Shown: positions 7,677-57,032, numbered from the stretch's first letter. The stretch: DNA of 64,000 bases from an uncultured Acidobacteriota bacterium (GCA_963817635.1 CAWFPR010000020.1:54866-118865), one strand, 5' to 3'. Notes: a model not told the origin generated them from the letters alone. Program-made: numbers and translations.

Positions 7677-8813
7677 ATGAAATCGCCACGCACGCGGAGC
7701 TCGAAGAAGGCCTCGCCTGGCGCCGCGAAGAAGCCGCCGGGCGTGGCGCATGTCACGCGCCATCAGCGTGGCGTCACTGCCGGTGTGTCGGTGAACGCGC
7801 GTGTCGAGCGCGAGCGAGCACTGGTCGCGCGCGAAGAAGCGGTGGCCCGTCGTGAGCGCGCGCTACGGCGGCAGGAGGCGACACTTCGCGTTTCACAGCC
7901 TCCGACGCAGACCCGCGCGGACATCGACCGGCTGATGGGCCAGATGCGGGAAGCGAACGAGCGGCTGATCGTCGCAGCAATCCACGCACAGAACCTGTCA
8001 GACGACGCCCACACGGAAACGGCGCAGGCCAGGGATGAACTCGACAATCTCCTGAACCAGCTGCGGTCCGCGAATGAAGGGTTAGCCGCCGGCGCCGCGC
8101 AGGCCCACGCGATGGCGGAGGAAGCCCGCGCGCGTGAAGAGAAGTATCGACGTTTGTCCAGTCGGCTCCTCACATTGCAGGATGAGGAACGACGGCGTCT
8201 CGCCCTGGATCTGCACGACTCGACAGGGCAGCGCCTGGCCGCCCTGACGATGAATCTCGACATCGCCGGACGGGCCGCGCGGTCGCTCGCCGCCCCGTCG
8301 CGCCGGGCGCTCGCGGAAAGTCGAGTCCTGGCCGAGGAATGCGCTCGAGAGGTGCGGACGCTCGCGTATCTGCTGCACCCCCCGTTGCTCGAAGAGGCGG
8401 GATTGCTGTCGGCGGTGCACTGGTACGCGGAGGGCTTCGCGAAGCGCAGCGGCATCGATGTGGTGGCGGATCTGGATGAGGTCGGGCGATTGCCGCGGCC
8501 GATCGAGACGGCCCTCTTCCGCGTCGTGCAGGAAAGTCTCACGAACGTCCATCGCCATGCGTCAACCACAACCGCCTCGATTCGTCTCACGGTCGCGAGC
8601 GATGTCGTCGCGCTCGAAATCCACGATCAGGGACACGGACTTCGTGAGCCGCTGGCACACCAGACAGGGATGCTCCAGCCTGAGACGCTGGGCGTGGGGA
8701 TTCAGGGGATGCGAGAGCGCATCAGTCAGCTGGGTGGGACCTTCGACGTCGAATTCACGGACAAGGGAACGACGGTGCGCGTTGGCGTGCCACTGAACGC
8801 GGACACCCCATGA
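7677..8813 (+). CDS. soluble sensor histidine kinase (HisKA_3 + HATPase_c) with an N-terminal coiled coil
   Basis: H-box LDLHDSTGQRLAAL, N-box ESLTNVHRHA, G-boxes HDQGHG and GIQGMRERISQLGG. No TM segment. It starts 4 nt after the kaiC-like stop. Confidence 0.85.
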   Translation: MKSPRTRSSKKASPGAAKKPPGVAHVTRHQRGVTAGVSVNARVERERALVAREEAVARRERALRRQEATLRVSQPPTQTRADIDRLMGQMREANERLIVAAIHAQNLSDDAHTETAQARDELDNLLNQLRSANEGLAAGAAQAHAMAEEARAREEKYRRLSSRLLTLQDEERRRLALDLHDSTGQRLAALTMNLDIAGRAARSLAAPSRRALAESRVLAEECAREVRTLAYLLHPPLLEEAGLLSAVHWYAEGFAKRSGIDVVADLDEVGRLPRPIETALFRVVQESLTNVHRHASTTTASIRLTVASDVVALEIHDQGHGLREPLAHQTGMLQPETLGVGIQGMRERISQLGGTFDVEFTDKGTTVRVGVPLNADTP

Positions 8814-9662: not shown

Positions 9663-9926
9663 ATGCCGCAGGCAAGGCTGCTCACACGTATCCGCGCCGA
9701 GTATCTGGAAATGCCCGGTTTGAAACTCACCCTCGGCCAGGCGCAGCGGCTCTGCGGCGTCGAGCGAGAGCTGTGCAAGATGGTGCTCGACGCGCTGGTG
9801 GCCGAGAAGTTCCTGTGCGTGAAGCCGGACGGGGCGTTTGCGCGGTTGACCGAGGGCGTCATTCCTCGCCCGCGTTCCGTCAAGGCGGACCTTCGAACCG
9901 AGCAGCGTGTCGCGACGGCGTCGTGA
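9663..9926 (+). CDS. small hypothetical protein (possible winged-helix)
   Basis: 87-aa ORF with a GGAGG Shine-Dalgarno 5 nt upstream of the ATG. The pattern LTLGQAQRLCGV...LDALVAEKFL resembles a wHTH recognition region. This assignment is weak. Confidence 0.5.
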   Translation: MPQARLLTRIRAEYLEMPGLKLTLGQAQRLCGVERELCKMVLDALVAEKFLCVKPDGAFARLTEGVIPRPRSVKADLRTEQRVATAS

Positions 9927-10129
9927 CGCCGCAGGCTCGTGTTTCGCGGAGCGTGCCGAATGCTCTGGATAGGAACGGCGGTGACGTTCGGCGCCGGCAG
10001 TGTCGCGCTGATGCTGGCCCTCCTGGCCAGGCGTCCCCCGCAGATTGAGGAACTCGGCTCTGTGAGCCATCGCTGGATTGCCGAGCATCGACTGGATTCG
10101 CCGTGAGCACGTAACCGACGAGTACCGCC

Positions 10130-12980: not shown

Positions 12981-14033
12981 TCAGGCCAGCAACTGGTCGA
13001 GCGGCCGGTAGCAGCAGATCTGGTCGAGACGGTGTTCGGCTTTGAGTTTCGCGTGCAGGGTGTCGAGCGCGAGCCGCGCCGGACCGGCCACGGTGCTTTC
13101 CCACGCGTCGGCCACGTCCGGAGCCGGCACGTGGCGGACGAGGTTCAGCGCGTGCGCCTCGTTGGGTGACGTGTCCTGCCGCATGACCATCGCGCAGGCC
13201 ACGCCTTGCGCGAAGGCCGTCCTGTCGCCCGAATAGAGCGGCGCGATCCGCTCCCTGACGATCGCCTCCAGAATCAAGGGCGTCTTCATGTTGACGATCG
13301 CCATGCCGGTCGCGAGGCCCGCAAGGAGGTTGAAGCGGCTCATCCCGCTGACCACCAGCCGATCGATCAGAGGGAACGCGGGCCACGGCTCGTTCCATCT
13401 GGGCATGAAGTCGATGAAGTAGCAGGCACGCCCGGCTCCGTGCCAGAGAAACGGCGCGTGCTCCGGGTCGATCTCCAGCATCGTCTGGGTGAGCGTCTCG
13501 AAGAACGGACGATAGAAGAACTGCGTCACCATACCCCAGGCCTCATACCCGATGCCCGAGTAGCCGGGCAGCAGGTTCAGCCTGGCCAGTTCGGCGATGC
13601 GGCAGGTGGCTTCCCGGACTCGCGCGGGCGTGGGATGCTTGCCGATCTTGTCGAAGTGGTGCCGCGCAATCGCGAGACAGAGGCCGGCGTGCACCATCAG
13701 CTGCATGTTCTCCGGCACCTGGGCGCCTTCCCCTTGGGTGAGGAGGTCGCGCGCGTTGTCGTCACGCGCCATCGCGCGGTTGCCGAGCACCTGTCCCAGT
13801 CCCTCGACCAGCCACAGCGCGCGGAACGGTTCGAGCCCCTGGATCTTCGCGATCAACTCGGAAACGCTGGCGTCCTTGCCGAGGAAAAGGTGGGTGAACT
13901 CCACCGTCTCGATGGTGCTGATCTTGTTGTCGCTCTCGATGGCGCCGATGCCAGAGCAGCCGGCGGGCGCGCAGAACACCCTGGCGATTGGCGGAATGAC
14001 ATAGTGGGCGATCTTGAAGGCGAGAGGGTTCAT
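12981..14033 (-). CDS. hypothetical protein (350 aa), alpha-repeat-like with recurrent G-x-G motifs
   Basis: ATG preceded by GAGGA. Recurrent motifs EGLG, HAGLCLA, GIGYEAWG, HGAGRACYF and AGLATGMA faintly recall the DUF1702 pattern. That comparison is from memory only and is unverified. Confidence 0.6.
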   Translation of the reverse strand: MNPLAFKIAHYVIPPIARVFCAPAGCSGIGAIESDNKISTIETVEFTHLFLGKDASVSELIAKIQGLEPFRALWLVEGLGQVLGNRAMARDDNARDLLTQGEGAQVPENMQLMVHAGLCLAIARHHFDKIGKHPTPARVREATCRIAELARLNLLPGYSGIGYEAWGMVTQFFYRPFFETLTQTMLEIDPEHAPFLWHGAGRACYFIDFMPRWNEPWPAFPLIDRLVVSGMSRFNLLAGLATGMAIVNMKTPLILEAIVRERIAPLYSGDRTAFAQGVACAMVMRQDTSPNEAHALNLVRHVPAPDVADAWESTVAGPARLALDTLHAKLKAEHRLDQICCYRPLDQLLA

Positions 14034-19884: not shown

Positions 19885-22215
19885 ATGCGGACCCGCAACA
19901 TGTCGACCCGCCTCGACCTTGCTCGCATCCGCCCACTGCTGATCGCGATGGCCTCCTGCGTGCTGGCCGGCTGTAGCGGCGCCCCGGGGGATTCCGCCCG
20001 ATCGCCGGCCACCGTCGAACCGCCGGTGGTCACCGCTGCGGGAATCGCGCCGCCGCCATCGGTGCCGATGACCGACTTCGCCGAGTCGTTGCGCGGCGTG
20101 CCCGTGCCCGACCCGCTGCGGTCGCTCGAGGATGTCTCCAGTCCAGCGACACGGGAGTTCGTGGCCGCTCAGCGGGCGTATGCCGATTCGGTGGTGGGTC
20201 GGCTCGTCGGACTCGAATCGCTGCAGGCTCGGGTGGAGCGTGCGTATCAGGACGCGCCAACCCTCGGTACCGTGACTTCGACCGCGGGCGGCCTGTTGCT
20301 CACGCGTTGGCTGGGACCGGCGCCCTCGCTGTTCGCACTCGATACCGGCACCACCACCGAGCGCTTGGTGCTGGATGCCGGCAGCCTGGCAAAGCAGTTG
20401 AACGGCGCTCGAATTCGCGTGGTGATGCCCAACGGGGACGCCACGCGAATCGCGATCGGCACCACCGAACAGGGTGATTCAAACGCCGGGATTGCCGTGC
20501 TCGATGCGGCGACGGGCGCTCTGCTTCCCGATCGGGTGCCCGATCTGCTGACCACCACCAGCGGCACGCGCTACCAGGTGAGCTGGCTGCCTGATGGCAG
20601 CGGCTTCTTCTATCCGCGGCTGTGGCCGGAGAGCGCGACGGGGCCGTCGGCCGACCGGCTCGCTCGCGGTCGCCAGTTCCTGCACGTGTTGGGTACACCA
20701 CAGGCGGCCGATGTGCCGGTGTTCGGTTTCGAGGTGAGCCCGTCGATCACGGTGAACAAGGCCGACCTGCCGACCCGGGTGTACACCGCACCGGGGTCGG
20801 CGTGGCTGGTCGCGACGCTCTACCGCTCCAGGGAAAGCGGCACCGACTTCTACTTTGCGCCGCTTGCGCTCGCGCGGCACACCCCCCTCGCGCCTGCACC
20901 GGAATGGCGCCCGCTGGCGAGTCCGGCCGACAACCTGAGTCAGCCGCAGCTGCGCGGCAACACGGTCTATGCGCTGTCGCGCGCCACCGCCGATCGCGGG
21001 ACGATCGTGCGCCGCGACCTTCGTGCCGATGGGGCCGGCGAATGGGTCACCGTGGTGCCTGAGCAGCGCGGCGTGATCATCGCGTTCACGGTCCAGAAGG
21101 ATGCGCTCTACTTCACCGAGCGGGACGCCGGCGCGGTAGCGCTCCGCCGGTTGCCGCATGGACCGTCCGCCGATGGGTGGTGGGCAATCGGCAGCGCCTC
21201 CATCGACACGGTGCCGCTGGAATCGCCCGGAACGGTGCGGCTGCAGGCGGGCGTGCCGGAAGAATCGGGTGTGATGTTCTCGACGGAATCGTGGGCCACC
21301 CCGCCGCGTTGGCAACGCGTGGTGGATGGCGGCAAGGTCGAGACATTGCCGATCGATGATGGCCGCGCGTCGTCCTCCGACGGCGACGTCACGGCGGCGC
21401 GGCTCGAAGCACCATCGAGCGACGGCACTCTGGTGCCCGTATCGATCGTGTACGGCGCGAACGCGCTGCGCAACGGTGTGCTCGATGGGACCGCACCGCT
21501 GTTCATCGACGCCTACGGCGGTTTCGGCGTGTCCACCGACCCCGCCTACAATCCGATCATGGCGCTCTGGACCTCGCTGGGCGGGGTGTACGCGTTCGCC
21601 CATGTGCGCGGTGGCGGCGAACTGGGCGAGGCGTGGCACACCGCGGCGATGCGCGAGCACAAGCAACGCAGCATCGACGACATGATCGGTGCGATCGAGG
21701 CGCTGATCGCCAGGCGCTACACGTCGGCTGGACGGGTGACGCTGATGGGCGTGTCGTTCGGCGCTGACATTGCCGGGCTGGTGATGGTCCAGCGCCCTGA
21801 CCTGCTCGGCGCGGTGCTGTTCGAAGTGGGGCAGCCGGATGAGATCCGTGGCGCGATGCTCGACCCGACCGCCGCTCGCAATATCTCCGAGATCGGCGAT
21901 CTCGACACGCCCGAGGGCGTCAAGATGCTGATGGCGGCATCGCCGTATCACCGGATTCCGGAAACGGTGGCCCTGCCGGCCGTGATCGTGCACAGCGCCG
22001 ACGACGACTACAACTTTGGAACGCAGATGCTGTCCGGTAAATACGTCGCGCGGCTGCAGGCGGCCAACAGCGGTAATCGACCGGTGGTGTGGCTGCACAC
22101 AGCGGGTGGACACCAGGAGTTGTTGAGCGTGTCGCCCGAGTGGGCCGCGAAGGCCCTGTCATTCGCCCTGTGGCAGTGCGGGGATCACGCCTACCAGCCG
22201 CCCCCGGCAGAATGA
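19885..22215 (+). CDS. prolyl oligopeptidase family lipoprotein (S9A)
   Basis: Lipobox VLAGC. N-terminal motif DPLRSLEDVSSPATREFVAAQRAY. The C-terminal hydrolase has GVSFGA (Ser), HSADDD and GGHQ. An alternative start at 19900 is possible. Confidence 0.8.
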   Translation: MRTRNMSTRLDLARIRPLLIAMASCVLAGCSGAPGDSARSPATVEPPVVTAAGIAPPPSVPMTDFAESLRGVPVPDPLRSLEDVSSPATREFVAAQRAYADSVVGRLVGLESLQARVERAYQDAPTLGTVTSTAGGLLLTRWLGPAPSLFALDTGTTTERLVLDAGSLAKQLNGARIRVVMPNGDATRIAIGTTEQGDSNAGIAVLDAATGALLPDRVPDLLTTTSGTRYQVSWLPDGSGFFYPRLWPESATGPSADRLARGRQFLHVLGTPQAADVPVFGFEVSPSITVNKADLPTRVYTAPGSAWLVATLYRSRESGTDFYFAPLALARHTPLAPAPEWRPLASPADNLSQPQLRGNTVYALSRATADRGTIVRRDLRADGAGEWVTVVPEQRGVIIAFTVQKDALYFTERDAGAVALRRLPHGPSADGWWAIGSASIDTVPLESPGTVRLQAGVPEESGVMFSTESWATPPRWQRVVDGGKVETLPIDDGRASSSDGDVTAARLEAPSSDGTLVPVSIVYGANALRNGVLDGTAPLFIDAYGGFGVSTDPAYNPIMALWTSLGGVYAFAHVRGGGELGEAWHTAAMREHKQRSIDDMIGAIEALIARRYTSAGRVTLMGVSFGADIAGLVMVQRPDLLGAVLFEVGQPDEIRGAMLDPTAARNISEIGDLDTPEGVKMLMAASPYHRIPETVALPAVIVHSADDDYNFGTQMLSGKYVARLQAANSGNRPVVWLHTAGGHQELLSVSPEWAAKALSFALWQCGDHAYQPPPAE

Positions 22216-35938: not shown

Positions 35939-36379
35939 CTAGCGCGCCTCGGCTTCGACCTCGATCGCCAGCGTGCCGCGAAGCGCGTTCGAGATGGGGC
36001 ACTTCCCTTCCGCTTCGCGCGCGACCTCCGGGAACTGCGACTTCTCGATGCCCTGGAGGCCCTCGGCGACAACCTTCAGCTTCGACGTCGTCAGCTTGAT
36101 CCCCGCCTCGGTCTTGTCCGCGATGACCGTCGCGCTCACGATCGTGCGCGCCGCGCTCCCGCCCTTGCGGCCAATCGTCGCGTTCAGCGCCATCGCATAA
36201 CACGCCGCATGCGACGCCGCCATCAGCTCTTCGGGACTCGTATGCCCGTCAGGCTCGCCGATGCGCGCGGGAAACGTCACCGGCAGCGAAAACGCCCCCG
36301 TCCCCGCCTTCGCCGTCCCCTTCCCCTCCATGACCGAGCCCGCCCAGTCAACCGTTACCGTACGAGAAAACGTCGCCAT
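35939..36379 (-). CDS. osmC: OsmC family peroxiredoxin
   Basis: MATFSRTVTVDWAGSVMEGKGT...TSPEELMAASHAACYAMAL...EGKCPISNAL carries both conserved Cys motifs of OsmC. Confidence 0.9.
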   Translation of the reverse strand: MATFSRTVTVDWAGSVMEGKGTAKAGTGAFSLPVTFPARIGEPDGHTSPEELMAASHAACYAMALNATIGRKGGSAARTIVSATVIADKTEAGIKLTTSKLKVVAEGLQGIEKSQFPEVAREAEGKCPISNALRGTLAIEVEAEAR

Positions 36380-36387
36380 CAGCACTC

Positions 36388-36502
36388 CAATCTGCAATCG
36401 CAATCGCAATCGCAATCTGCAATCTGCAATCTGCAATCTGCAATCTGCAATCGCCACTCGGCAATCCGTCAATCTGCACTCTGCAATCTTCAGTCTGCAA
36501 TC
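36388..36502. repeat. 6/7-nt tandem micro-array (AATCGC x3, AATCTGC x5 plus degenerate units)
   Basis: Read directly: caatctgcaatcgcaatcgcaatcgcaatctgcaatctgcaatctgcaatctgcaatcgcc... It fills the spacer between the upstream gene's stop and the osmC start. Confidence 0.9.
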
Positions 36503-41582: not shown

Positions 41583-41600
41583 TCGAATCAGCGGCAGCCT

Positions 41601-41695
41601 CTGTCGCGCAGCGATCAGATCACGGGCCTCACAGGAGCAACGGAGAGACGGAGACACGGAGGGTTGCTGTCGCGCTGCGATCGGATCACGGGCCT
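41601..41695. repeat. 29-nt direct repeat pair flanking (G)ACGGAGA micro-repeats
   Basis: ctgtcgcgcagcgatcagatcacgggcct (41601-41629) and ctgtcgcgctgcgatcggatcacgggcct (41667-41695), 27/29 identical. Confidence 0.85.
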
Positions 41696-41765
41696 GACCC
41701 CGACCGCCGCCCGCCGAGCGCCAACGCCGCCGTCTCAGACTTCCCGCCGGCCCCTGGCACAAAGT

Positions 41766-41828
41766 CACGAAGGACACGAAGTAAGTTGTTTGCTTCGTGC
41801 TCTTCGTGCGCTTCGTGTTTCTTCGTGA
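41766..41828. terminator. CACGAAG x2 / CTTCGTG x4 inverted heptamer cluster between convergent genes (candidate bidirectional terminator)
   Basis: cacgaaggacacgaagtaagttgtttgcttcgtgctcttcgtgcgcttcgtgtttcttcgtg can form alternative hairpins. It lies between the + gene end (41582) and the recR end (41872). Confidence 0.4.
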
Positions 41829-41871
41829 TTGCGCCGCAGGCGCCGCGAGTGCGGCTGTCGGCGAATGGCCG

Positions 41872-47356: not shown

Positions 47357-47364
47357 AGGGCCGC

Positions 47365-48657
47365 TTACGGTGAACGCCGCGCCTGTCCCCACCCGCCGAT
47401 CAGCACGCCGGCCGCGACGGCCAGCACGCTTCCGAACTCGATCGCGAGCGCGCCCGGCGGGACCGCCCAGGCGCCGCCGAGAGTGGCGATGCGCCAGACC
47501 ACGTACGTGGCCAGAATGCTCACCGACCACGCCAGGAGCGGCAGGGTCGTGCGGCCGCTGAGCGTGAACGGCAACAGCCAGAGCAGATACCAGGGGTACA
47601 CGACGGGCGACGCGATCAGGGCGGCCGCCATCGGCCAGGCCCATGTGTCCGGCCGCCCGATGCCGAGGCGAGCTTGCAGCACGGCCGCCACCGCGAGGCC
47701 GCCCAGCACACCCAGACCCGTGGCCCAGCGCGGACCGAGGATTGCCGCCGCCGGCACGAACAGCGTCTCGTTGAAGCGGAATCGATCCACGAAGATTCCG
47801 AGGGAGCCGACCGGCAGCGATCCTCGCGTCAGATACGGTGCCGCGAGCAGCAGCAGGAGCGCAGCGCCGGCAGCCGCGTCGGCGAGCCGGATGCGGCGCC
47901 AGTACAGCGGCAGCAGCACAATCGGCAGCGGCTTGATCGCCACCGCCATGGCAAACGCCAGCACGCTCGCGAGGCCGCGCCCTTCGATCAGCAGCAGGGC
48001 GGATGCGGTCAGGAACATGGCGCCCGCCACATCGACGTGCGCCTGGCCGGCCGTCGCGAGCAGCAGGAGCGGGCTCCACGCGTACACCAGCATCCAGCGC
48101 GGAGACGCCCTCCAGATCCGCAGCAGCCGCCAGACCACCAGCGCGAGCAGCAGATCGCAGACGGCGAACGCCACCTTGAACGCGTACGCGTTCTGGCTCA
48201 GCCGGTACACGACTCGAAACAGGAGCTGCGCGCCGGGCGGATACGGCGTCGGCACGCGGGGATTGTTGATGCGTCGTGACTCGTCGGTCTGAAGCGCAGC
48301 CACCGCGGGATCCGCGGGCGCGAGCGCGTACGGATCGTAGCCTGCCTGCTGGACGCGCGCGTCCCAGACGTACCGATACACATCCGTGCTGGGCGCCTCC
48401 AGCCAAAAGGGGATGCGAAGCGCGACCGCCAGCACCAGACACCCTTGGACGAAACGGCGGGACAGGGGATCGGTCGATCTCAGCGCCGCGACGATGCTCA
48501 CGGCGTAGCCGGCGGCCAGTACCGCAAGCAGCGGCACGAACCCGGGCTGGTCGGCACCCGGCGCTCTCGCCGCCATCGCCACCGCCGTCGCGGACATGGT
48601 CAGCGCACCCGCGACGATGACGAGGCGGTTATCGATCCGCATGGCCGGTGGGCCCAC
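47365..48657 (-). CDS. GT87/DUF2029-type polyprenol-phosphate-dependent glycosyl (mannosyl) transferase
   Basis: About 10 TM helices. The first periplasmic loop (TDVYRYVWDARVQQAGYDPY...PYPPGAQLLF) is typical of DUF2029. The start is uncertain (48657, 48642 or 48597). Confidence 0.7.
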   Translation of the reverse strand: MGPPAMRIDNRLVIVAGALTMSATAVAMAARAPGADQPGFVPLLAVLAAGYAVSIVAALRSTDPLSRRFVQGCLVLAVALRIPFWLEAPSTDVYRYVWDARVQQAGYDPYALAPADPAVAALQTDESRRINNPRVPTPYPPGAQLLFRVVYRLSQNAYAFKVAFAVCDLLLALVVWRLLRIWRASPRWMLVYAWSPLLLLATAGQAHVDVAGAMFLTASALLLIEGRGLASVLAFAMAVAIKPLPIVLLPLYWRRIRLADAAAGAALLLLLAAPYLTRGSLPVGSLGIFVDRFRFNETLFVPAAAILGPRWATGLGVLGGLAVAAVLQARLGIGRPDTWAWPMAAALIASPVVYPWYLLWLLPFTLSGRTTLPLLAWSVSILATYVVWRIATLGGAWAVPPGALAIEFGSVLAVAAGVLIGGWGQARRSP

Positions 48658-49307
48658 GCCGCCAGCAACGCCCGGGTCCGCGGCGCACGCGAGCGGTTGG
48701 CCGACAGATCGCGCGCCAGACGGTCCACGTCCTGGGGCCGATCGACGTCGTAGTGCTCCGGCGCAAGCGCCACGGTCAGCCCAAGCGCATCAGCCCGCGC
48801 CCGGAGGGCGTCGGCGGCCGATTGCGTCCCCATGACATCGGCCGCGAAGAGTCCGTCATGCGCGCACGTCGCCCCCACCAGGTAGTATCCGCCGTCGTCG
48901 CACGGTCCGATCACGACATCGCGGATCCGGAGATGAGCGAATGCCTCGCCGAGCGTGGCCGCTGACACGTGAGGCGCGTCGCCGCTGAGCGCGATGACTG
49001 CGTTGCGGGCCGGCGTACACAGACGCTCGAAGACGGACGTCAGCGCGGCCGCGAGCCCGGTCCCGCTCTGCGCGACAACCTCGACGCCAGCCGGAAGCCA
49101 CGCCCGCACCGCCTCGGCATCGGCTGACGGGCACACGGCCACCGTGCGAACGCCAAGCGCGCGCCCGGTCTCGAACGTGTCCTCGATGAACGCCCGGTAC
49201 AGGCCGGTGATCTGGTCCGGCGCGAACGCCGGCGCGAGCCGCGTCTTCACGTGGCCGGCGCGCGGTGCCTTCGTCATCACGGCGAGGACGCGATCGTCGC
49301 GGGTCAC
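48600..49307 (-). CDS. DUF2064 / TIGR04282-type (CofC-like) transferase
   Basis: VLAVMTKAPRAGHVKTRLAP...GLYRAFIEDT...SGDAPHVS...GPCDDGGYYLVG is the DUF2064 signature. Confidence 0.75.
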   Translation of the reverse strand: MTRDDRVLAVMTKAPRAGHVKTRLAPAFAPDQITGLYRAFIEDTFETGRALGVRTVAVCPSADAEAVRAWLPAGVEVVAQSGTGLAAALTSVFERLCTPARNAVIALSGDAPHVSAATLGEAFAHLRIRDVVIGPCDDGGYYLVGATCAHDGLFAADVMGTQSAADALRARADALGLTVALAPEHYDVDRPQDVDRLARDLSANRSRAPRTRALLAAWAHRPCGSITASSSSRVR

Positions 49308-49310
49308 TGG

Positions 49311-50006
49311 TCATCGTGCCGTCGGCCGTCCGTCGAGACGGTACTGGAAGATGCAGCCGAAGATCCGCCAGGCTGCCCCGAGCGATCCGCGGACGGTTCC
49401 GGTGATCTTCGACTGGCCGATGCGGCGGTGGTAGCTGACCGGGACTTCGGCGATACGTAGCCCCGCGAGCGCGCCGCGCAGGATCATCTCGACGGCCCAG
49501 CCGTAGCCCGCCTCGCGCAGCCGAAGCGCGCCGAGCGCGTCGGCGCGCACCGCGCGGAAGGGTCCGGGGTCGGAGATCTCCACGCCGTACAACACCCGGA
49601 TCAAACCGGCGGCGACCCGGTTGCCCGCCACGGAGTGCCACGGCAGCGCGCCGGGTTCACGCCGGCCCGCCAGCCGCGAGCCGATGACGATGTCGGCACG
49701 GCCGGCGACGATGGGCTCGATGAGCATCGGCAGCTCCGCGGGACGATCGCTGTAGTCCCCATCCAGGAAGACGATGATGTCCGGATGATCGGCGTGCTCC
49801 AGCCCTGTCAGGCAGGCGCGCCCGTAACCGCGTCGCGGCTCGTTGAGGACGCGGGCGCCTCGCGCGGCGGCGATCGCCGCGGTGGCGTCGGAGGATTCCG
49901 CGTCAACCACGATGATCTCCGTCGCCGGCGGGCGCGGGATCTCGTCGAGCACGCGGCCGATCGCCTGCGCTTCATTGCGCGTGGGAATGACGACCGTGAC
50001 GCGCAT
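49311..50006 (-). CDS. family 2 glycosyltransferase (Dpm1/GtrB-like)
   Basis: MRVTVVIPTRNEAQAIGRVLDEI...IIVVDAESSDATA...VFLDGDYSD...GSR (DxD and GT-A fold motifs). Confidence 0.85.
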   Translation of the reverse strand: MRVTVVIPTRNEAQAIGRVLDEIPRPPATEIIVVDAESSDATAAIAAARGARVLNEPRRGYGRACLTGLEHADHPDIIVFLDGDYSDRPAELPMLIEPIVAGRADIVIGSRLAGRREPGALPWHSVAGNRVAAGLIRVLYGVEISDPGPFRAVRADALGALRLREAGYGWAVEMILRGALAGLRIAEVPVSYHRRIGQSKITGTVRGSLGAAWRIFGCIFQYRLDGRPTAR

Positions 50007-50485
50007 CACCAGAGCGGACTGTCCGGGTTCCCGTGAGCGAGCACGGAATCGAGGCCCCAATACCGGCCGGCGCGGCCGACCGACAGGGCAAAGGCGACCC
50101 AGGTCGGGACGAGCAGTTCCCAGATCCAGGCCGTGCCCCATTCCGACAGCCACAGGCTCGCGAGGAACAGCCCCGCGGCACATGCGGCCGGCCGCGTGAA
50201 GAGGCCGAGCGTGAGCAGGAGCCCGAAGGACGCCTCCGCGAGCGCCTGCAGCGGCGCGGCGATACGGGCGTGATCGGCCGCGGCGGCCATCACAAGCTTC
50301 CACACGTGCGGTGCGTGTCCCTGATCGATGTAGCTTCGGATCAGATGCGCATACCCGTCCGGGGTGTACAACCCCTTGCCGTAGTTCTCGAAAAACACCG
50401 AGAGGAACATTACACCCAGGCAGAGGCGCGCGAGTGCGAGGCCTGCCCGGGCGGCGGAATCGGATCGCAGATCAGCATGCATCAT
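50006..50485 (-). CDS. DoxX family membrane protein
   Basis: Four TM helices (LALARLCLGVMFLSVFFEN, ASFGLLLTLGLFTRPAACAAGLFLASLW). TGATG overlap with the GT2 gene. Confidence 0.7.
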   Translation of the reverse strand: MMHADLRSDSAARAGLALARLCLGVMFLSVFFENYGKGLYTPDGYAHLIRSYIDQGHAPHVWKLVMAAAADHARIAAPLQALAEASFGLLLTLGLFTRPAACAAGLFLASLWLSEWGTAWIWELLVPTWVAFALSVGRAGRYWGLDSVLAHGNPDSPLW

Positions 50486-50590
50486 GACTCTCTTCGCAGT
50501 AATGGCGCTCACCCGGACAATGGCGCACCCGCCGTCGCCGGCTCCCATGCTCCTGGGATTATGGCGCCGCCGGCCGCCATGGCGCCGGAG

Positions 50591-51623
50591 TCAGTCGCGC
50601 GCGACGACGATGGTCGTGCAGGCGCTCTCGCTCTTCGGCAGTTCCCGAGCGGCCGCCATTCGGACCTCGAGCTTCTGCTCCTCGCCGCGAACGATCGGGC
50701 AGTACGGATCGGGAGCGTCGATGGCTCCGCGCAGGCCGCGGCGACCCGCGCAGCCGCCCCGGCACGTCGGCTTGAAGGCGCACTCGCGACAGGCCTCCGG
50801 GAGCGTGCGCGCGTGCTCGAAGGCCGCCGTGTCCACAATGCGCGCGCCTCCGGCGAGCAGCGCCGACAGGGGCTCGCCGTCGCCTGGCCAGTAGACGCAC
50901 GGCTGCGTCGTACCGCGGGGCGTCACGCGCACGGTCCGCACGCCGCAGCCGCCGGTTCGCGGAGGCAACCCGGCCATCGCGCGGACGAGCGGTTCCCCGA
51001 TCGCCACCACGTCGGTTGCCGCGAAGAGGGCGCGGAAGCCGTCCCAGGTACTCGCGGTAGGTCAGCGCGAACCGATCGGATTGCACCGCCTGGTATACGT
51101 TCACCCGCAGCAGGGCGCCGTGCCGTCCGGCGACGCGCGCCACCTCGGCGAGGCGCGCATAGTTCGCCTTCATCATCACGGCAATGAAGGTGACGGGAAT
51201 GCCGAGGCGAACCGCGCGCGCGGCCTGCTCGTGCACGAGCGCCCAGTTGCCGGCACCGCGCTCGGCGTCCTGCTCCTCCCGGGTCGGATAGTCGAGCGAG
51301 AACTCCACATCGGCGAACGCGCGCAGTTCATCGTCGTCCAGGACGGCGGCGCTGTGGCCGTTCGTGGTGATGGTGAGCTTGACCGGCCGCGTTCGCAGGT
51401 CGGCCAGGATTTCGTGGAACTGCGGGTGCATGCCGTTTTCGCCCGTGCCGAGATTGACCGAGCGGACGGGCAGCGCAGAGACGACCGCGCGCACCTGTTC
51501 GGGGCTGAGCCGATCGACCCGCGATGGATCGCGGTAGCAGAACGCGCACGAGAGGTTGCACTCGCTGGTCAGGCCCAGACCGATCGCGAACCCGTCGGCG
51601 GGCGCAGGCGGACGCGCCGTCAT
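50591..51623 (-). CDS. radical SAM protein with a SPASM/twitch-like Cys-rich C-terminus (frameshift near 51047)
   Basis: CNLSCAFCY (CxxxCxxC). After ...FALTYREY the sensible frame moves +1 (WDGFRALFAATDVVAIGEPL...CRECAFKPTCRGGCAGRR...PDPYCP). ATGA overlap with the upstream methyltransferase gene. Confidence 0.8.
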
Positions 51624-52420
51624 CGTGGCGTCCCCGTCGCATCGACGGGCCGTCGCGCAATGAGGTGCAGGTAACGGGCCACGGCGACGAACTCCGGGCG
51701 CGCGCCGAGCGTGGACTCCAGCTCGAAGACGCGCGCGGCGTCGGCCTCCTCGAGCCGCTCCGGCTCGATGTAGTCGGCAATCACTCGGACGCCACGTTGC
51801 TCGACCACCTCGAGGCTCGCGGCGCCAATCGCGCCGTGCAGATCCGATGGAGCGAAGATACGCACGGTTCCACCGTACAGGCCTTCGCGCACGGAGTCGA
51901 GAGAGAGTGTAGCCGCGGCACGCGTCCAGTCTCGCGAGACGAGGGCCGCCTTCAGCACCTCCCCCGCCCGGTTGCGCACGAGCAGCGAGCACAAGCCGCC
52001 GGGCCGCAGCAGCCGCGCGATGTCGCGCACGGCCCGCGGCGGATCGGACAGGTACTCCAGCACGTTGTGGCAGACCACCACGTCGAACGAGGCTGGATCA
52101 TACAGGTGGGTCAGGCGGTCGGCGGCCGCGTGCTGGAACGTCATCCGCGCGGCAACGCCGCGGGCCGTTGCGGCCTCGCGCGCGAGCGCGAGCATCCCTT
52201 CGGAGGCGTCGAGCACGACCACGTCGAACCCGATCTCCGCGAGGCGCGCGGCGGTGACGCCCGTGCCACCGCCGACGTCGAGCGCGCGCCGTCCCGACGA
52301 ACCGGCCGGGAGCCACGCCCGGAGGCCCTGCCAGGCGAGGTTTGTTCGCAGTCGTCCGCCGGCCGTCTCCAGGTAGGCCGCGTACTTGTCGGCGTCGTCG
52401 AAGCGCGACGTCTCCGGCAT
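51620..52420 (-). CDS. class I SAM-dependent methyltransferase
   Basis: Motif I ALDVGGGTGVTAARLA, post-I VVVLDASEGML, and Methyltransf_11-like FDVVVCHNVLEYL. Confidence 0.85.
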   Translation of the reverse strand: MPETSRFDDADKYAAYLETAGGRLRTNLAWQGLRAWLPAGSSGRRALDVGGGTGVTAARLAEIGFDVVVLDASEGMLALAREAATARGVAARMTFQHAAADRLTHLYDPASFDVVVCHNVLEYLSDPPRAVRDIARLLRPGGLCSLLVRNRAGEVLKAALVSRDWTRAAATLSLDSVREGLYGGTVRIFAPSDLHGAIGAASLEVVEQRGVRVIADYIEPERLEEADAARVFELESTLGARPEFVAVARYLHLIARRPVDATGTPR

Positions 52421-52478
52421 CCGCCGCCTAGGTTACCTCCCGGCCCGGGAATTGAGAAGCGGCGGCCCCTGAGCCCTG

Positions 52479-54186
52479 CTACCTGAGCCCTGAGCCTTTC
52501 TTTATTCCGCTCGAGATCACGAACATGCGGCCCGAGTGATTGCCCGCGATGCCGCTCCAGGCCGACGTGATCAGGAGATCGATCGTCCCGTCTCCGTCCA
52601 CGTCGCCGATGCCGACCGCGTCGAAGCCGAACGTGTCGCCGGGGATGCGGCAGGTGTAGGTGCGCAGGAGCTTCCCGTCCTTTCCGGAATACAGGTAGGC
52701 GCGTCCGGCGGACGCGGCGGCGGCCGAGGTACTGCCAGGAGCCGATGATCAGGTCCGGCACGCCGTCGCCGTCGGCGTCGCCCATCCGGGACGCGCCGAT
52801 GCCGAAGCCTTCGCCCGGCGTCTCGCCGGTGAGGGTCAGCAGGTTCCTGCCGTCCTTGCCCGAATACACGTAGGCGCGACCGGTCGAGGGTCCCTTTGCG
52901 GCATTCGGAAAGTCGGTCGTGTAGACATCGGGCACACCGTCGCGGTCGAAGTCTCCCGGCACCGACATGAACATGGCGCCGAAGGCCGCACCGGTGTCGT
53001 CGGAATCGACGGTGAAGGCTGGCTTCTGCGTGAGGCTGTCATAGACGTAGAAGCGGCCGGTCGTATGCGCGCCTCCGCCCGGCGCCCCGACCAGCAGGAA
53101 CTTGTGCCTGCCGTCGGCGTAGCCGGAGACGGCGGCGCCGAACTGGTCGTTGGCACGCTCGCCGGTCAGGGTCAGCAGCAGTTTGCCATCGGCGCCGGAG
53201 TAGACGTACGCGCGCCCGGCGCCCTTGCCGTTCGCGGCGTTCGCCGGCGCGCCGACGATGACGTCGGCGGCGCCGTCGCCGTTGAAATCGCCGACGCCGG
53301 CGACGTGACGGCCGAAGCCGTCGCTCAGCGCTTCAGCCTTGAACATCTGGAGCACGGAGCCGTCCTTGCCGGAATAGATGCCGGCGTACCCGCCGCCGGG
53401 CGCGCTCGCGATCACGTCGGGAATGCCGTCCTTGTTCGCGTCGCCGGCGGCTTCGACGCCGATGCCGAGCGTGTCGCCCGGCTTGCCGTCCACCTTCCAC
53501 AACAGCTTTCCTGATTTCGTCGAGTAGACGTAGACGCGACCGGCCGGCGCGCCGCCGCCGATCACCTTCGTCGGGGCGGACGTGACGATGTCGTGGACGC
53601 CGTCCTTGTCGACGTCGCCGATGTCGCGCGCGATCCAGCCGAACTGATCGCCGATCGCCTCGCCGTCCCACTCGCGGATGATTCTGGTGTCTTCGACGAA
53701 CGGATTGGCGAAATCGGCGGGCTTGGGCAGCAGCGCGGCGAAGCGCGGATCGCTCTTCAACGCCGCGACGTCGGAATCCACCTGAATTTGCGTCATGTCC
53801 ATCTTGCCGGTGGCCTTGGCCTTGCCGAGCCATTCGAAGGCGCGATCGGCGTCGCCCTTGAGGGCGTATACCGTGCCGATGTTGTAGGTGACGGCCGGCG
53901 CGACCGGCTGCAGGGTCAGAAACTTCTGGTACGCCGCGAGGGCGCGATCGAGTTCCTTGTTCTGCTGAAGGGCGATGCCGTACATGCGCCACGCGCGCGC
54001 GTTGGCTGGCTCGCTCGAGGTGATCTGCTCGAGGATTTTCACGGCGCCGGCGAAGTCGCTGGCGCGCAGCTTCGCCGCGGCGTCATTGAGCGACGGCTGC
54101 TGGGCTGCCGACAGGGCACACCCGGCGAGTACCAGAACGGCCATCGTGTGGCGGAACGTCCGGATATCGATCGTCATGCCGCGCAT
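52479..54186 (-). CDS. secreted TPR + FG-GAP (integrin-alpha-like) repeat protein, frameshift near 52738
   Basis: Signal/lipobox LVLAGC, TPR units, then 7 FG-GAP-type units (GD.DGDG.PD...G.AY.YSGKDG). The last unit and the stop (TAG 52479-52481) are in the +1 frame. Confidence 0.75.
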
Positions 54187-54412
54187 TCTAGCGGCGCCCG
54201 TCCACCCCGCCTACGCGCAAGTGACGGACGCGCACGCGCGAGGACCAAGCGCGGTTCGCAGGGGACGGGCGACAGGGCGGCCGGCTGAAACCGTCGTTTT
54301 CAGGCCTGAAACTGGCGTGTTCAACGACCACCCCTGGTGACGAACGCCGCATCTCTCACGCCTGGCGATCGCCCGTTGAGGTCCGGGTTAGCTCTCAGAG
54401 GGTTCCCCCCCC

Positions 54413-54628
54413 AGCAGCTTCACCCCAGCTTCAACCCGGCTCCGACCCAGCTTCACCCCAGCTTCGACGGAGCTTCACCCCAGCTTCAACCCAGCTCCGA
54501 CCAGCTTCCCCAGCTTCGACGGAGCTTCACCCCAGCTTCAACCCAGCTCCGACCCAGCTTCACCCAGCTCCGACCCAGCTTCAACCCAGCTTCGACCCAG
54601 CTTCGACCCAGCTTCGACCCAGCTTCGG
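54413..54628 (+). repeat. tandem array of about 20 units of an 11-nt repeat (CAGCTTCRACC)
   Basis: Read directly, ending ...cagcttcgacccagcttcgacccagcttcgacccagcttcgg. It lies about 25-40 nt upstream of the cupin start codon. Confidence 0.95.
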
Positions 54629-54666
54629 CGCGTCAGGTCTGAATTGGTGGGTTGTACACTCCGCAC

Positions 54667-55023
54667 ATGGACGTCATCAATCTCGAAGAGAAGTTCCGCG
54701 CCGTCACGGCGTACTGGCAGCCGAAGATTGTCGGTGCTGTCAACGACTTCCACGTGAAGATCGCCAAGATCCAGGGGGAGTTCGTCTTTCACCATCACGA
54801 GACCGAGGACGAGCTGTTCCTCGTGCTCAAGGGGCGGCTGCTGATGAAGTTCACCCACCGCGAGCTCTGGATCGAGCAGGGTGAGTGCCTGATCGTTCCG
54901 CACGGCGTCGAGCACTGCCCCGTCGCGCCCGAAGAGGTACACATCCTGCTGCTCGAGCCGGCGACGACGCTGAACACCGGCACGGTCCAGAACGAGCGTA
55001 CCGTCGACGCGGAGTGGATTTAA
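54667..55023 (+). CDS. cupin domain protein
   Basis: MDVINLEEKF...FHVKIAKIQGEFVFHHHETEDELFLVLKGRL...GECLIVPHGVEHCP. The ORF-track start at 54652 is TTG. Confidence 0.8.
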   Translation: MDVINLEEKFRAVTAYWQPKIVGAVNDFHVKIAKIQGEFVFHHHETEDELFLVLKGRLLMKFTHRELWIEQGECLIVPHGVEHCPVAPEEVHILLLEPATTLNTGTVQNERTVDAEWI

Positions 55024-55151
55024 GGGTCCGTCCGGAAATCCGCCGGGACCAGGGTGGCGTAGTCCCGGTGACTTCGGATTCGTTGCCCGGCAGGTTGCGC
55101 CGCGATCGGCGGCACGAGACTGTTCCCCCGGCCTGGACGGGGTTGACGCTC

Positions 55152-55428
55152 GGGTCGAAGCTGGGTTGAAGCCGGGTCGAAGCCGGGTCGAAGCCGGGTC
55201 GAAGCCGGGTCGAAGCCGGGTCGAAGCTGGGTCGAAGCTGGGTCGAAGCTGGGTCGAAGCTGGGTTGAAGCTGGGTTGAAGCTGGGTTGAAGCTGGGTTG
55301 AAGCTGGGTTGAAGCTTGGTCGAAGCTGCGTCGAAGCTGGGTCGGAGCTCTGGGTTGAAGCCGGGTCGAAGCTGGGTTGAAGCCGGGTCGAAGCCGGGGT
55401 GAAGCTGGGTCGAAGCTGGGGTGAAGCT
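55152..55428 (-). repeat. tandem array of about 25 units of the same 11-nt repeat in inverted orientation (GGGTYGAAGCY)
   Basis: Read directly. It contains blocks of identical variants (5x gggtcgaagcc, 4x gggtcgaagct, 5x gggttgaagct) and is the reverse complement of the 54413-54628 unit. Confidence 0.95.
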
Positions 55429-55447
55429 CCCGCGCGCGGGGCGCCGA

Positions 55448-57032
55448 TCAGGCGCGGGGAAGTTCGACCGTATAGAGGATCTTCCCGGACAGGTCGTGCA
55501 GCTTGACCGTCATGGCCAGCGTGCGCGCGTCGACGGTCAGCGTCCCGAAGAACTGAAGGCCCTCGCTCGGCGGACGGTTCGGCTTCGTCGCCGCGGTCGT
55601 CCCGGTGAACTTCACGTCCGGCCCGAACGTCCGGTCCAGCTCGTTCGGCGGGAACGTGCCGGCGTTGAGCGGGCCGGCGACGAACTCCCAGAACGGATCG
55701 AACTCGGTGAAGACCGCGCGCGACGGATCGTAGCGGTGCGCGGCGCAGTAGTGCACGTCGGCGGTCACCCACACGACGTTGCGGATGCGCCGATCGCGGA
55801 TGAACGTCAGCAGGCTCGCGACCTCGAGCTCGCGGCCGAGCGGCGGGCCCTCGTCGGCGTTGGCGAACGCCTCGTAGTACGACGGCGGGTCCCGGACGAC
55901 CAGGCCGATGGGCAGGTCGCTGGCGATCACCTTCCACGTGGCCCGGCTCGCGGCGAGGTTGCGCTTCAGCGACGCGAGCTGGGCGGCGCCGAACAGCGCC
56001 GACGACTCGTCGAGCACTCTCTGGCGGTTCGCCGAATTCGGCCCCCGATAGCTGCGCAGATCCAGCGCGAAAATCTCGACGTGCGGGCCGTAGGTCAGGT
56101 TGCGGTAGACGCGGTCCGGATTGTCCGGATTGAGCGGCAGCGGATTGTACTCGGCAAACGCCCGCCGCGCGCGCGCCGCGAGGAGCGCCATGCTCTTCTC
56201 GTGGTACCGCGCGTCGCGATCGAGGCTGCGCTCCCAGGTACCAGTTGTCGCGCACCTCGTGGTCGTCCCACATGACGACCTGCGGCACTTCGGCGTTGAA
56301 TCGCCGCATGTGGTCGTCGAGCAGGTTGTACTGGTAGTTCCCGCGGAAGTCGTCGATCGTCTCGGCCGCGTGCGACTTGGCCGGCGTCACGATGTTCTTC
56401 CACACCGTCCCGTCGTCCAGCGGCACTTCGGCGGCGAGCGGCTGGTCGGCGTAGATGGTGTCGCCGGCGTTGATGAACACGTCCGGCTGCGCGGCGCGCA
56501 TCGTCTCGTAGAGGCGAAGACCGCCCCACTCGGGATTGATGCCCCAGCCCTGGCCGACGGTGTCGGCCGACCAGGCGATGGTGACATTGCGCGAAGCGTC
56601 GCCGGGCGTCTGGAAGCTGCCCGCGGCCGGCAGGCTCCACCGGCGGATGTCAGCGAGATCCTGGAAGAGCACGCGGTAGAAGATCCGCTGGCCCGGCGGC
56701 AGGTCCGTCAGGGCCACGCGGGCAGTGAAATCGGATGTATCGAGCGCGGCCGGCCCCTCGACGCGCAGGGGATGGGCGAATCGATCGGAGGTGTCGTACT
56801 CGACGAACATGCGGGCCGCGCGATCGGCGCGGCTCCAGATGACGGCACGCCCGCCGGTCACATCGCCCGCGGCGACGCCCTGCGGAATCGCGGGACGCGA
56901 CGATTCCTGGACGACGAGCGCCGGCGCCCGGCCGAAACCGGCGGCCCGGACGGACGGCACCAGGCATGATGCGGCCCCGAGCGCGAGCGAACGCCGGAAG
57001 AACGCCCGGCGATCGATCCGCACCGGGGCCAT
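55448..57032 (-). CDS. phoD: alkaline phosphatase D (PhoD) with a Tat signal, frameshift near 56236
   Basis: MAPVRIDRRAFFRRSLALGAAS (twin-Arg). PhoD motifs: GDTIYAD, WDDHEVRDNWY. The sensible frame then moves +1 (WERSLDRDARY...VVWVTADVHYCAAH...). Confidence 0.85.

Follow-up and report, generated by a model that had tools for sequence, protein, structure and literature searches.

Paired 11-nucleotide tandem repeat arrays, probably minisatellites, around a cupin gene in three related Vicinamibacterales genomes

We analyzed a 64,000-nt stretch of DNA from an uncultured Acidobacteriota bacterium (GCA_963817635.1 CAWFPR010000020.1:54866-118865), referred to here as the window, in which two arrays of an 11-nt tandem repeat lie in opposite orientations on either side of a small cupin gene. 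These arrays are probably a pair of lineage-specific, non-coding minisatellites of a small Vicinamibacterales clade; slippage or unequal exchange would alter each of them, exchange between them would keep them homogeneous, and their bracketing of the cupin gene would be incidental. Bacterial intergenic variable-number tandem repeats (VNTRs) with copy numbers changed by slipped-strand mispairing are well documented (PMC4045669, PMC3352902). The basic kind of repeat is already known, and what would be new is a pair of minisatellites that evolve in concert and change orientation between relatives.

The arrays and their counterparts in related genomes

The arrays lie in the intergenic regions between a divergent FG-GAP gene on the left, the cupin gene, and a convergent phoD gene on the right. 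Tandem Repeats Finder placed the left array, about 20 head-to-tail units, at positions 54415 to 54627 (+ strand; period 11, 19.7 copies, 79% matches, consensus CAGCTTCGACC) and the right array, about 26 units of GGGTCGAAGCT and its variants, at 55140 to 55428 (+ strand; period 11, 26.0 copies, 88% matches). The right-array consensus, GGGTCGAAGCT, is the reverse complement of CAGCTTCGACC in another register. The left array was also recognized in the sequence and in a unit map, and the right array in an inverted-repeat search and a unit map. The original prediction had described two inverted 11-nt arrays of about 20 and about 25 units around the cupin gene, and both its coordinates and its counts proved right to within one unit. 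Both arrays are intergenic relative to the called genes, and their period, 11 in the window and 11.5 to 12 in one relative described below, is never a multiple of 3, in agreement with the earlier view that they are non-coding. The left-array units are C-rich on the cupin sense strand and include the variants TTCACC, TTCAAC, and TCCGAC. A two-unit pattern that allowed up to 3 mismatches gave 39 matches in the window, 16 on the + strand and 23 on the - strand, all of them within the two arrays, while 100 shuffles gave 0 matches; outside both arrays, the 64 kb hold one stray single unit, at 35950. An inverted-repeat finder returned arms of 71 to 90 nt that were 78 to 95% complementary in many registers. 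Runs of identical units are found in the right array (five of GGGTCGAAGCC, four of GGGTCGAAGCT, and five of GGGTTGAAGCT), and the left array contains an internal higher-order duplication of approximately 52 nt. The outermost units of the left array are AGCTTCACCCC AGCTTCAACCC, and those of the right array, at the PhoD side and read on the C-rich strand, are AGCTTCACCCC AGCTTCGACCC.

The named matches of the FG-GAP protein assign the lineage to the Vicinamibacterales of the Acidobacteriota. Two syntenic relatives with long contigs were read, L028 and L023, with L023 being the only outgroup; all long contigs come from one ENA assembly series (ERZ250395xx, with Flye-style contig names). Contig L028 (ena:ERZ25039533 contig_18512) has approximately 94% nucleotide identity to the window and the same layout, with the FG-GAP gene followed by a C-rich array, the cupin gene, a G-rich array, and phoD. 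The orthologous arrays differ in copy number, with 20 units in the window versus approximately 8 in L028 on the left and 26 versus 8 on the right, which bears out the earlier claim that the arrays expand and contract. The left array of L028 carries at its inner end a stub of two inverted (G-rich) units. Contig L023 (ena:ERZ25039539 contig_8834) is approximately 86% identical to the window (84 to 91%) and has arrays at both equivalent junctions, one (A') on the phoD side, 20 nt after the phoD stop codon, and one (B', 13516 to 13775) corresponding to the left array, 48 nt upstream of the cupin ATG. In L023 the unit GGGTCGGAGCT alternates with GGAGCNGAGCTC, giving the period of 11.5 to 12 and higher-order periods of 23 and 82 nt, and the two arrays are both G-rich on one strand and are thus direct repeats, which enclose a gene for a 660-aa TonB-dependent receptor as well as the cupin gene. 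No copy or remnant of the receptor gene was found in the window or L028. The orientation of the cupin gene relative to its flanks is identical in the window, L028, and L023, and the array upstream of the cupin gene also keeps its orientation relative to this gene in all three. The phoD-side array is flipped in L023 versus the window, with collinear flanks and an outer junction that agrees within approximately 3 nt. Inverted terminal arrays with identical outer units are therefore present in the window and L028, and direct arrays in L023. Two more distant relatives with phoD synteny (L024 and L025, 66 to 70% PhoD identity) had no arrays and no cupin or FG-GAP neighbors.

An assembly artefact as the origin of the arrays, or of their inverted arrangement, is scarcely credible. 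The window, L023, and L028 assemblies all carry frameshifted genes, which suggests error-prone long reads, and single-base details of individual units should therefore not be over-read. However, arrays were found at equal junctions in three assemblies from different samples, with variant orders that differ and unique flanks that align. Because related arrays occupy equivalent positions in L023 and L028, an artefact of a single assembly was rejected.

Unit maps of these arrays provided information on how they change. Read on the C-rich strand, each of the four arrays of the window and L028 has AGCTTCACCCC AGCTTCGACCC as the two units at its outer end, and homogeneous runs lie toward the cupin side of the arrays, which suggests that recent expansions occurred there. 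TTC-type units dominate the same four arrays. The unit cores are TTCGA, TTCAA, or TTCAC in the window and L028 and TCCGA or GAGCTC in L023, and a private variant, TGCTCCGACCC, which neither the window nor L028 has, occurs in the two L023 arrays. The similarity of arrays, measured on 11-mers, was 0.27 to 0.45 within a clade and 0.00 to 0.15 between clades, and the two arrays of one genome therefore evolve in concert in both the inverted and the direct arrangement. In length, too, the arrays of each genome are alike (213 and 289 nt in the window, approximately 79 to 110 and 90 nt in L028, and 260 and 266 nt in L023), a comparison that covers three genomes only.

Head-to-tail non-coding units, a change in copy number between relatives, and a slippage-like internal pattern are the properties of a VNTR, and all were found here. 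As in the VNTR loci used for multiple-locus VNTR analysis, for example in Xanthomonas and Burkholderia (PMC4045669, PMC3352902), the units are short, intergenic, and arranged in runs of identical variants, copy number differs greatly at an orthologous locus between close relatives, and the edge units are degenerate. Unlike those loci, this one has two arrays of one family that are 0.5 to 2.5 kb apart and evolve in concert, that have an inverted arrangement in one sub-lineage and a direct one in another, and whose unit family forms back-to-back palindromic pairs elsewhere. Slippage and gene conversion are the mechanisms that we infer from these patterns. The arrays sit in two neighboring gaps, the divergent one between the FG-GAP and cupin genes and the convergent one after phoD. 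In the sequence of events that we favor, replication slippage or unequal exchange would lengthen or shorten each of them, chiefly on its inner side. Gene conversion or recombination over 0.5 to 2.5 kb would keep the two arrays alike while the unit drifts between genomes, and the inverted orientation would be the state of one sub-lineage, that of the window and L028. The phoD-side array would mark a rearrangement breakpoint, where genomes differ in having or lacking the receptor gene and in the direction of the array. Transcription of the cupin gene would start at a leaderless-type promoter of its own, located downstream of the left array. The arrays probably have no effect on cupin expression, and their main biological effect would be structural instability of the locus. 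If this is correct, then the locus is a well-documented case of the concerted evolution of paired minisatellites in an uncultivated lineage from soil, and the pair would serve as a strain marker, a warning about breaks in short-read assemblies, and a local rearrangement hotspot, and would say nothing special about the cupin.

The cupin gene and the repeat family away from it

The gene between the arrays (54667 to 55023, + strand) encodes a 118-aa Cupin_2 protein (Pfam E=3.3e-9). The family has 4219 homologues, with approximately 65% identity even to Anaerolineae, and the window cupin shares 91% identity with its syntenic counterpart in L023; an exact look-up of the protein with two alternative starts returned no record. 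The guanine-plus-cytosine (GC) content of the gene is 0.61 versus approximately 0.70. The GC content of the family is equally low, 0.59 to 0.66, in every context, and that of the cupin gene was therefore rejected as a sign of horizontal transfer or recent import. The cupin gene is best taken as an ordinary resident gene of the locus and not as cargo. No arrays flank the cupin homologues at 76 to 81% identity that were examined at five loci in five different contexts (L020, L021, L022, L026, and L027), and these loci have no room even for a period-11 array. The closest cupin from outside the clade (L026, 81%) was considered as an empty site and rejected, since it is not syntenic.

The region immediately upstream of the cupin gene was compared across eight cupin loci (the window, L023, L028, and the five just named). 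A -10-like box (TACACT, TAGACT, or TAACCT) was found 6 to 7 nt upstream of the ATG in all eight, whose contexts are unrelated. In the window it is TACACT (54655 to 54660), 6 nt before the cupin ATG and downstream of the left array, within a 39-nt segment between the left array and the ATG (54628 to 54666, + strand) that is conserved in L023 and L028. From the geometry of this box we infer a leaderless-type promoter and a cupin transcript that starts downstream of the left array, and the mRNAs of this small cupin family appear to be leaderless. Scans of the sequence for sigma-70 promoters and intrinsic terminators gave nothing above shuffles. The distance from the last array unit to the -10 box is variable among relatives, from approximately 25 to approximately 75 nt.

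We also searched for the repeat unit beyond this locus. In approximately 148 kb, made up of the window and related loci (L023, L024, L025, and L028), the unit occurs at this one locus only, and no isolated dimers or trimers of the unit core lie outside the arrays, the region upstream of the phoD operon included. A degenerate 3-unit pattern run against 185,579 species-representative genomes gave only eight microsatellites (in Actinobacteria, Paraburkholderia, and others), which were rejected as relatives, being of 3 to 5 units, in a single orientation, and from unrelated taxa. The viral collection gave one irrelevant 3-unit match. A degenerate three-unit probe of 241 million metagenome records gave 10 contigs, several with the array at a contig end, as expected if such arrays break short-read assemblies. 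Three high-GC contigs among those examined carry the unit family without a cupin gene. One (L015) has a solitary array of approximately 10 units between two genes, and in the other two (L009 and L014) a C-rich array is followed directly by a G-rich array, forming a long palindrome with nothing between its arms. The 11-mer similarity of the L009 units to the window arrays was 0.41 to 0.44, similar to that of the left versus the right array of the window. Inverted pairs at any locus all run from 5'-C-rich to G-rich-3' (L009, 15 to 200; L014, 1170 to 1250; L028, 9633 to 9761 on the - strand), and the opposite order was not found. This constant order, in 4 to 5 cases, hints at a polarity in palindrome formation. 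Separately, a related array of GGGTCGGAGCC with extra GGGTC inserts, of approximately 16 units, was found in L010, L011, L017, and L018 (for example, L017 4739 to 4907); it is one locus of an organism of lower GC content (0.57), has equal length from three of four samples, and has an open reading frame running through it.

These results do not uphold the proposal of a dedicated cupin-bracketing architecture. The L023 arrays are direct and enclose two genes, the five other cupin contexts lack arrays, and the unit family occurs without a cupin gene, alone or back-to-back. The opposite possibility, that the repeat is ubiquitous intergenic filler with no orientation relationship to flanking genes, was borne out in one part only, as the orientation of the repeat varies relative to the genes beside it, but the repeat is not found ubiquitously.

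Several known element classes were compared with the locus. Clustered regularly interspaced short palindromic repeats (CRISPR) share the regular spacing of direct repeats, but here the unit is 11 nt, units are contiguous in both arrays with no unique spacers between them, and neither a leader nor cas genes were seen; the original prediction was right to set CRISPR aside. Repetitive extragenic palindromic (REP) sequences of proteobacteria and the composite BIME and REPIN elements are likewise intergenic, often located past gene 3' ends, lineage specific, and present in alternating, hairpin-capable orientations. REPs are, however, imperfect palindromes of approximately 20 to 40 nt that occur in hundreds of copies and are linked to REP-associated tyrosine transposases (RAYTs), whereas here an 11-nt tandem unit that forms no hairpin is found at one locus per >100 kb, is not high-copy in the approximately 148 kb, and has no RAYT in sight. 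Rfam at a permissive threshold gave no match. BLAST searches of plasmids and phages matched the cupin coding part only (70 to 79%) and left the arrays unmatched, a negative result that is weakened by the low-complexity filter. No transposase or recombinase was found in the element or among the neighbors examined in the window, L023, and L028, and comparison of the left flank (...GGGTTCCCCCCCCAGC) with the right flank (CCCGCGCGCGGGG...) showed no common direct repeat that could be a target-site duplication. No empty site with precise ends was found, with arrays occurring elsewhere without the cupin gene and the cupin gene elsewhere without arrays. Readings of the G-rich and C-rich strands as G-quadruplexes or Rho-utilization sites were rejected, as the strand orientation relative to genes is inconsistent across loci. 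A literature search for tandem repeats in Gemmatimonadetes or Vicinamibacter found nothing.

Alternative explanations

Several observations fit poorly with paired minisatellites of the ordinary kind. An ordinary VNTR is a single array, and here two arrays persist at two neighboring sites in three genomes, with similar lengths within each of the three; the identical outermost units that the window and L028 have on each of their four arrays resemble terminal inverted repeats; and the unit family is found at unrelated loci, three times as back-to-back inverted pairs (L009, L014, and the left stub of L028), C-rich and then G-rich. Pure slippage would explain neither the spread of the family nor the formation of palindromes. 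For these reasons (paired persistence, symmetric outer units, other loci, and palindromic C-then-G pairs), a foldback-like family stays alive as a minority explanation, although we consider it unlikely. Each array would then be one arm of an inverted pair in a palindromic element composed of 11-nt tandem units, which seeds new loci and, when hairpins or cruciforms form or its arms recombine, inserts, deletes, or inverts the DNA between its arms, and the cupin gene (in L023, with the receptor gene) would now lie between arms that were formerly adjacent. In addition to the points just listed, the pairs in L009, L014, and the L028 stub are free of cargo, the unit type common to unrelated loci is close in L009 to that of the window, and a gene-sized indel and the flip of an array fall exactly at an array boundary. 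Eukaryotic elements of the Galileo type have terminal inverted repeats extended by tandem repeats and generate inversions (PMC4168063), and foldback transposons such as Drosophila FB and Galileo share with this locus long inverted arms of tandem repeats, variable arm length, and rearrangements (PMC4168063). They differ in that this is a prokaryotic locus with neither a transposase nor a target-site duplication, no multicopy spread with a common interior, and arms that are direct in the nearest outgroup. Moreover, the cupin gene, the left array, and the FG-GAP gene are syntenic in three genomes, and the cupin therefore did not arrive with the arrays. The distribution also argues against a spreading element, with one locus in approximately 148 kb, 10 contigs in the metagenome records, and trivial matches in the species-representative genomes. 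The broader proposition, a prokaryotic foldback-type family of palindrome-forming minisatellites that spreads to new intergenic sites in Vicinamibacterales and, by recombination through hairpins or between arms, reshuffles gene-sized segments such as the TonB-receptor gene with no recognizable transposase, is rather improbable; if true, bacteria would have a new form of genome plasticity driven by repeats and a counterpart of the eukaryotic foldback elements.

We give similarly little credence to the arrays being phased binding sites, one per helical turn, of the OmpR/PhoB, ParR, or iteron type, which would act as an enhancer, an insulator, or a titration sink near phoD and the cupin promoter. 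The binding sites of PhoB have been described as tandem repeats of 11 bp (PMC4447250), and Pho boxes, OmpR-PhoB operators, and ParR/parC iterons are alike in having head-to-tail repeats of approximately 11 bp. In the window the periodicity is strictly 11 nt, head to tail, phoD is adjacent, and the left array abuts the cupin core promoter with its orientation kept in three genomes, in which both sites retain arrays. Known operators of this type, however, have 2 to 10 units with a conserved core at a fixed promoter distance, and here there are 8 to 26 units whose copy number varies 2.5- to 3-fold at a variable distance from the -10 box. The recognition core differs at orthologous sites between the window or L028 (TTCGA/TTCAA/TTCAC) and their close relative L023 (TCCGA), and the period of approximately 11 nt is not kept in L023, which counts against the earlier suggestion of protein binding phased by the helical turn. 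The phoD-side array is at the phoD 3' end and flips orientation, no short core dimers or trimers were found at other promoters in the five loci examined, and the L023 and L028 gene tables list no regulator gene adjoining the arrays. Very unlikely, in turn, is a switch operated by RecA-mediated inversion of the cupin cassette or by extrusion of a cruciform, an idea that was part of the original prediction. The arms, of 210 to 290 nt, 85 to 95% complementary, and 524 nt apart, would be long enough for homologous recombination. Only one cupin orientation was seen in the three assemblies, though, no site-specific recombinase is present nearby in the gene tables, and the inverted arrangement is absent in L023; the likely promoter also lies inside the segment, and flipping would therefore not switch the cupin gene. 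The remaining proposal, that both arrays pair in one transcript and place a double-stranded RNA stem of approximately 210 bp around the cupin mRNA, with effects on its stability, processing, or translation, is extremely unlikely. The predicted fold of 54400 to 55440 does pair the arrays nearly end to end in such a stem (-647 kcal/mol), and the part of the original prediction that had the arrays pairing over more than 200 nt holds if they are transcribed together. This is the trivial outcome of any inverted repeat, however, and is impossible for the direct arrays of L023. Single arrays fold weakly, slightly better than shuffles (z of -1.0 to -3.1), the two arrays differ in length and variants, and no Rfam family was found. 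Since the -10-like box is downstream of the left array and of a leaderless type that puts the likely start at the ATG, a stem enclosing the cupin transcript, the other part of that prediction, is unlikely.

Flanking features and other short repeats

On the left, the TPR/FG-GAP gene, identified by gene calls and Pfam, starts at 54186 on the - strand. Alignment with the relatives showed that the unique part of the divergent intergenic region beside it (54187 to 54414) is well conserved, with conservation falling off toward the array. A perfect 14-nt palindrome, TTTCAGGCCTGAAA, is located in this upstream region of the FG-GAP gene at 54298 to 54311 and is followed by GGCGTGTTCAACG. The palindrome is kept in L023 (approximately 13852 to 13865) and has one mismatch in L028 (approximately 9868 to 9881), and it is a likely operator for some regulator. 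Between the cupin stop codon and the right array is a unique spacer of approximately 116 to 128 nt (55024 to 55139), delimited by sequence and alignments. The corresponding distance is 45 nt in L028 and, with the receptor gene next, 172 nt in L023, and only the last approximately 19 nt of the window spacer (ctgttcccccggcctggac) are common to L028.

On the right, the flank between the right array and the PhoD stop codon (55429 to 55450) contains the palindrome CCCGCGCGCGGG (55429 to 55440) and forms, in alignment with the relatives, the conserved outer junction of the array. The convergent neighbor is the C-terminal part of a PhoD-like phosphatase recognized by Pfam (55448 to 56191, - strand), with its stop codon at 55448 to 55450; 19 nt separate this codon from the right array. 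The phoD gene is split over two frames in the window (approximately 56225 to 56235), L023 (approximately 9900 to 10000), and L028 (approximately 8330 to 8420), at an identical site, TACCTGGGAGCGC, that contains CCTGG and shows no indel when the three assemblies are compared. In long "contig_N" ENA assemblies, gene calling likewise gave C-terminal pieces of approximately 247 to 290 aa for many PhoD homologues. Either base calling fails systematically at a CCWGG site that may be methylated, or the frameshift is real and conserved. Its shared position beside CCTGG suggests a systematic base-calling error, and the odd units of 8 to 10 nt in the left array may be errors as well.

The genome of the window carries several other intergenic arrays of short units. 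One, of approximately 17 units of CAATCTG/CAATCG, lies at 36388 to 36502 between two - strand genes. Another, a 7-nt repeat of CCCTGAG in 4.3 copies that is also conserved in L023, occupies 52467 to 52496 at the FG-GAP gene 3' end, exactly at the breakpoint of a variable island (window 47361 to 52463; L023 15664 to 15842; L028 11712 to 15150). This island holds approximately 4.4 to 5.1 kb in the window (GT2, radical SAM, DUF2064, and methyltransferase genes), MacB and a PIN toxin in L028, and approximately 100 nt in L023, and the CCCTGAG array is a second case of a short tandem array marking a junction of structural variation. In L028, a 93-nt unit is present twice, with 98% identity, in an intergenic region at 20698 to 20879, and its counterpart in the window (approximately 41600 to 41830) consists of short repeat fragments only.

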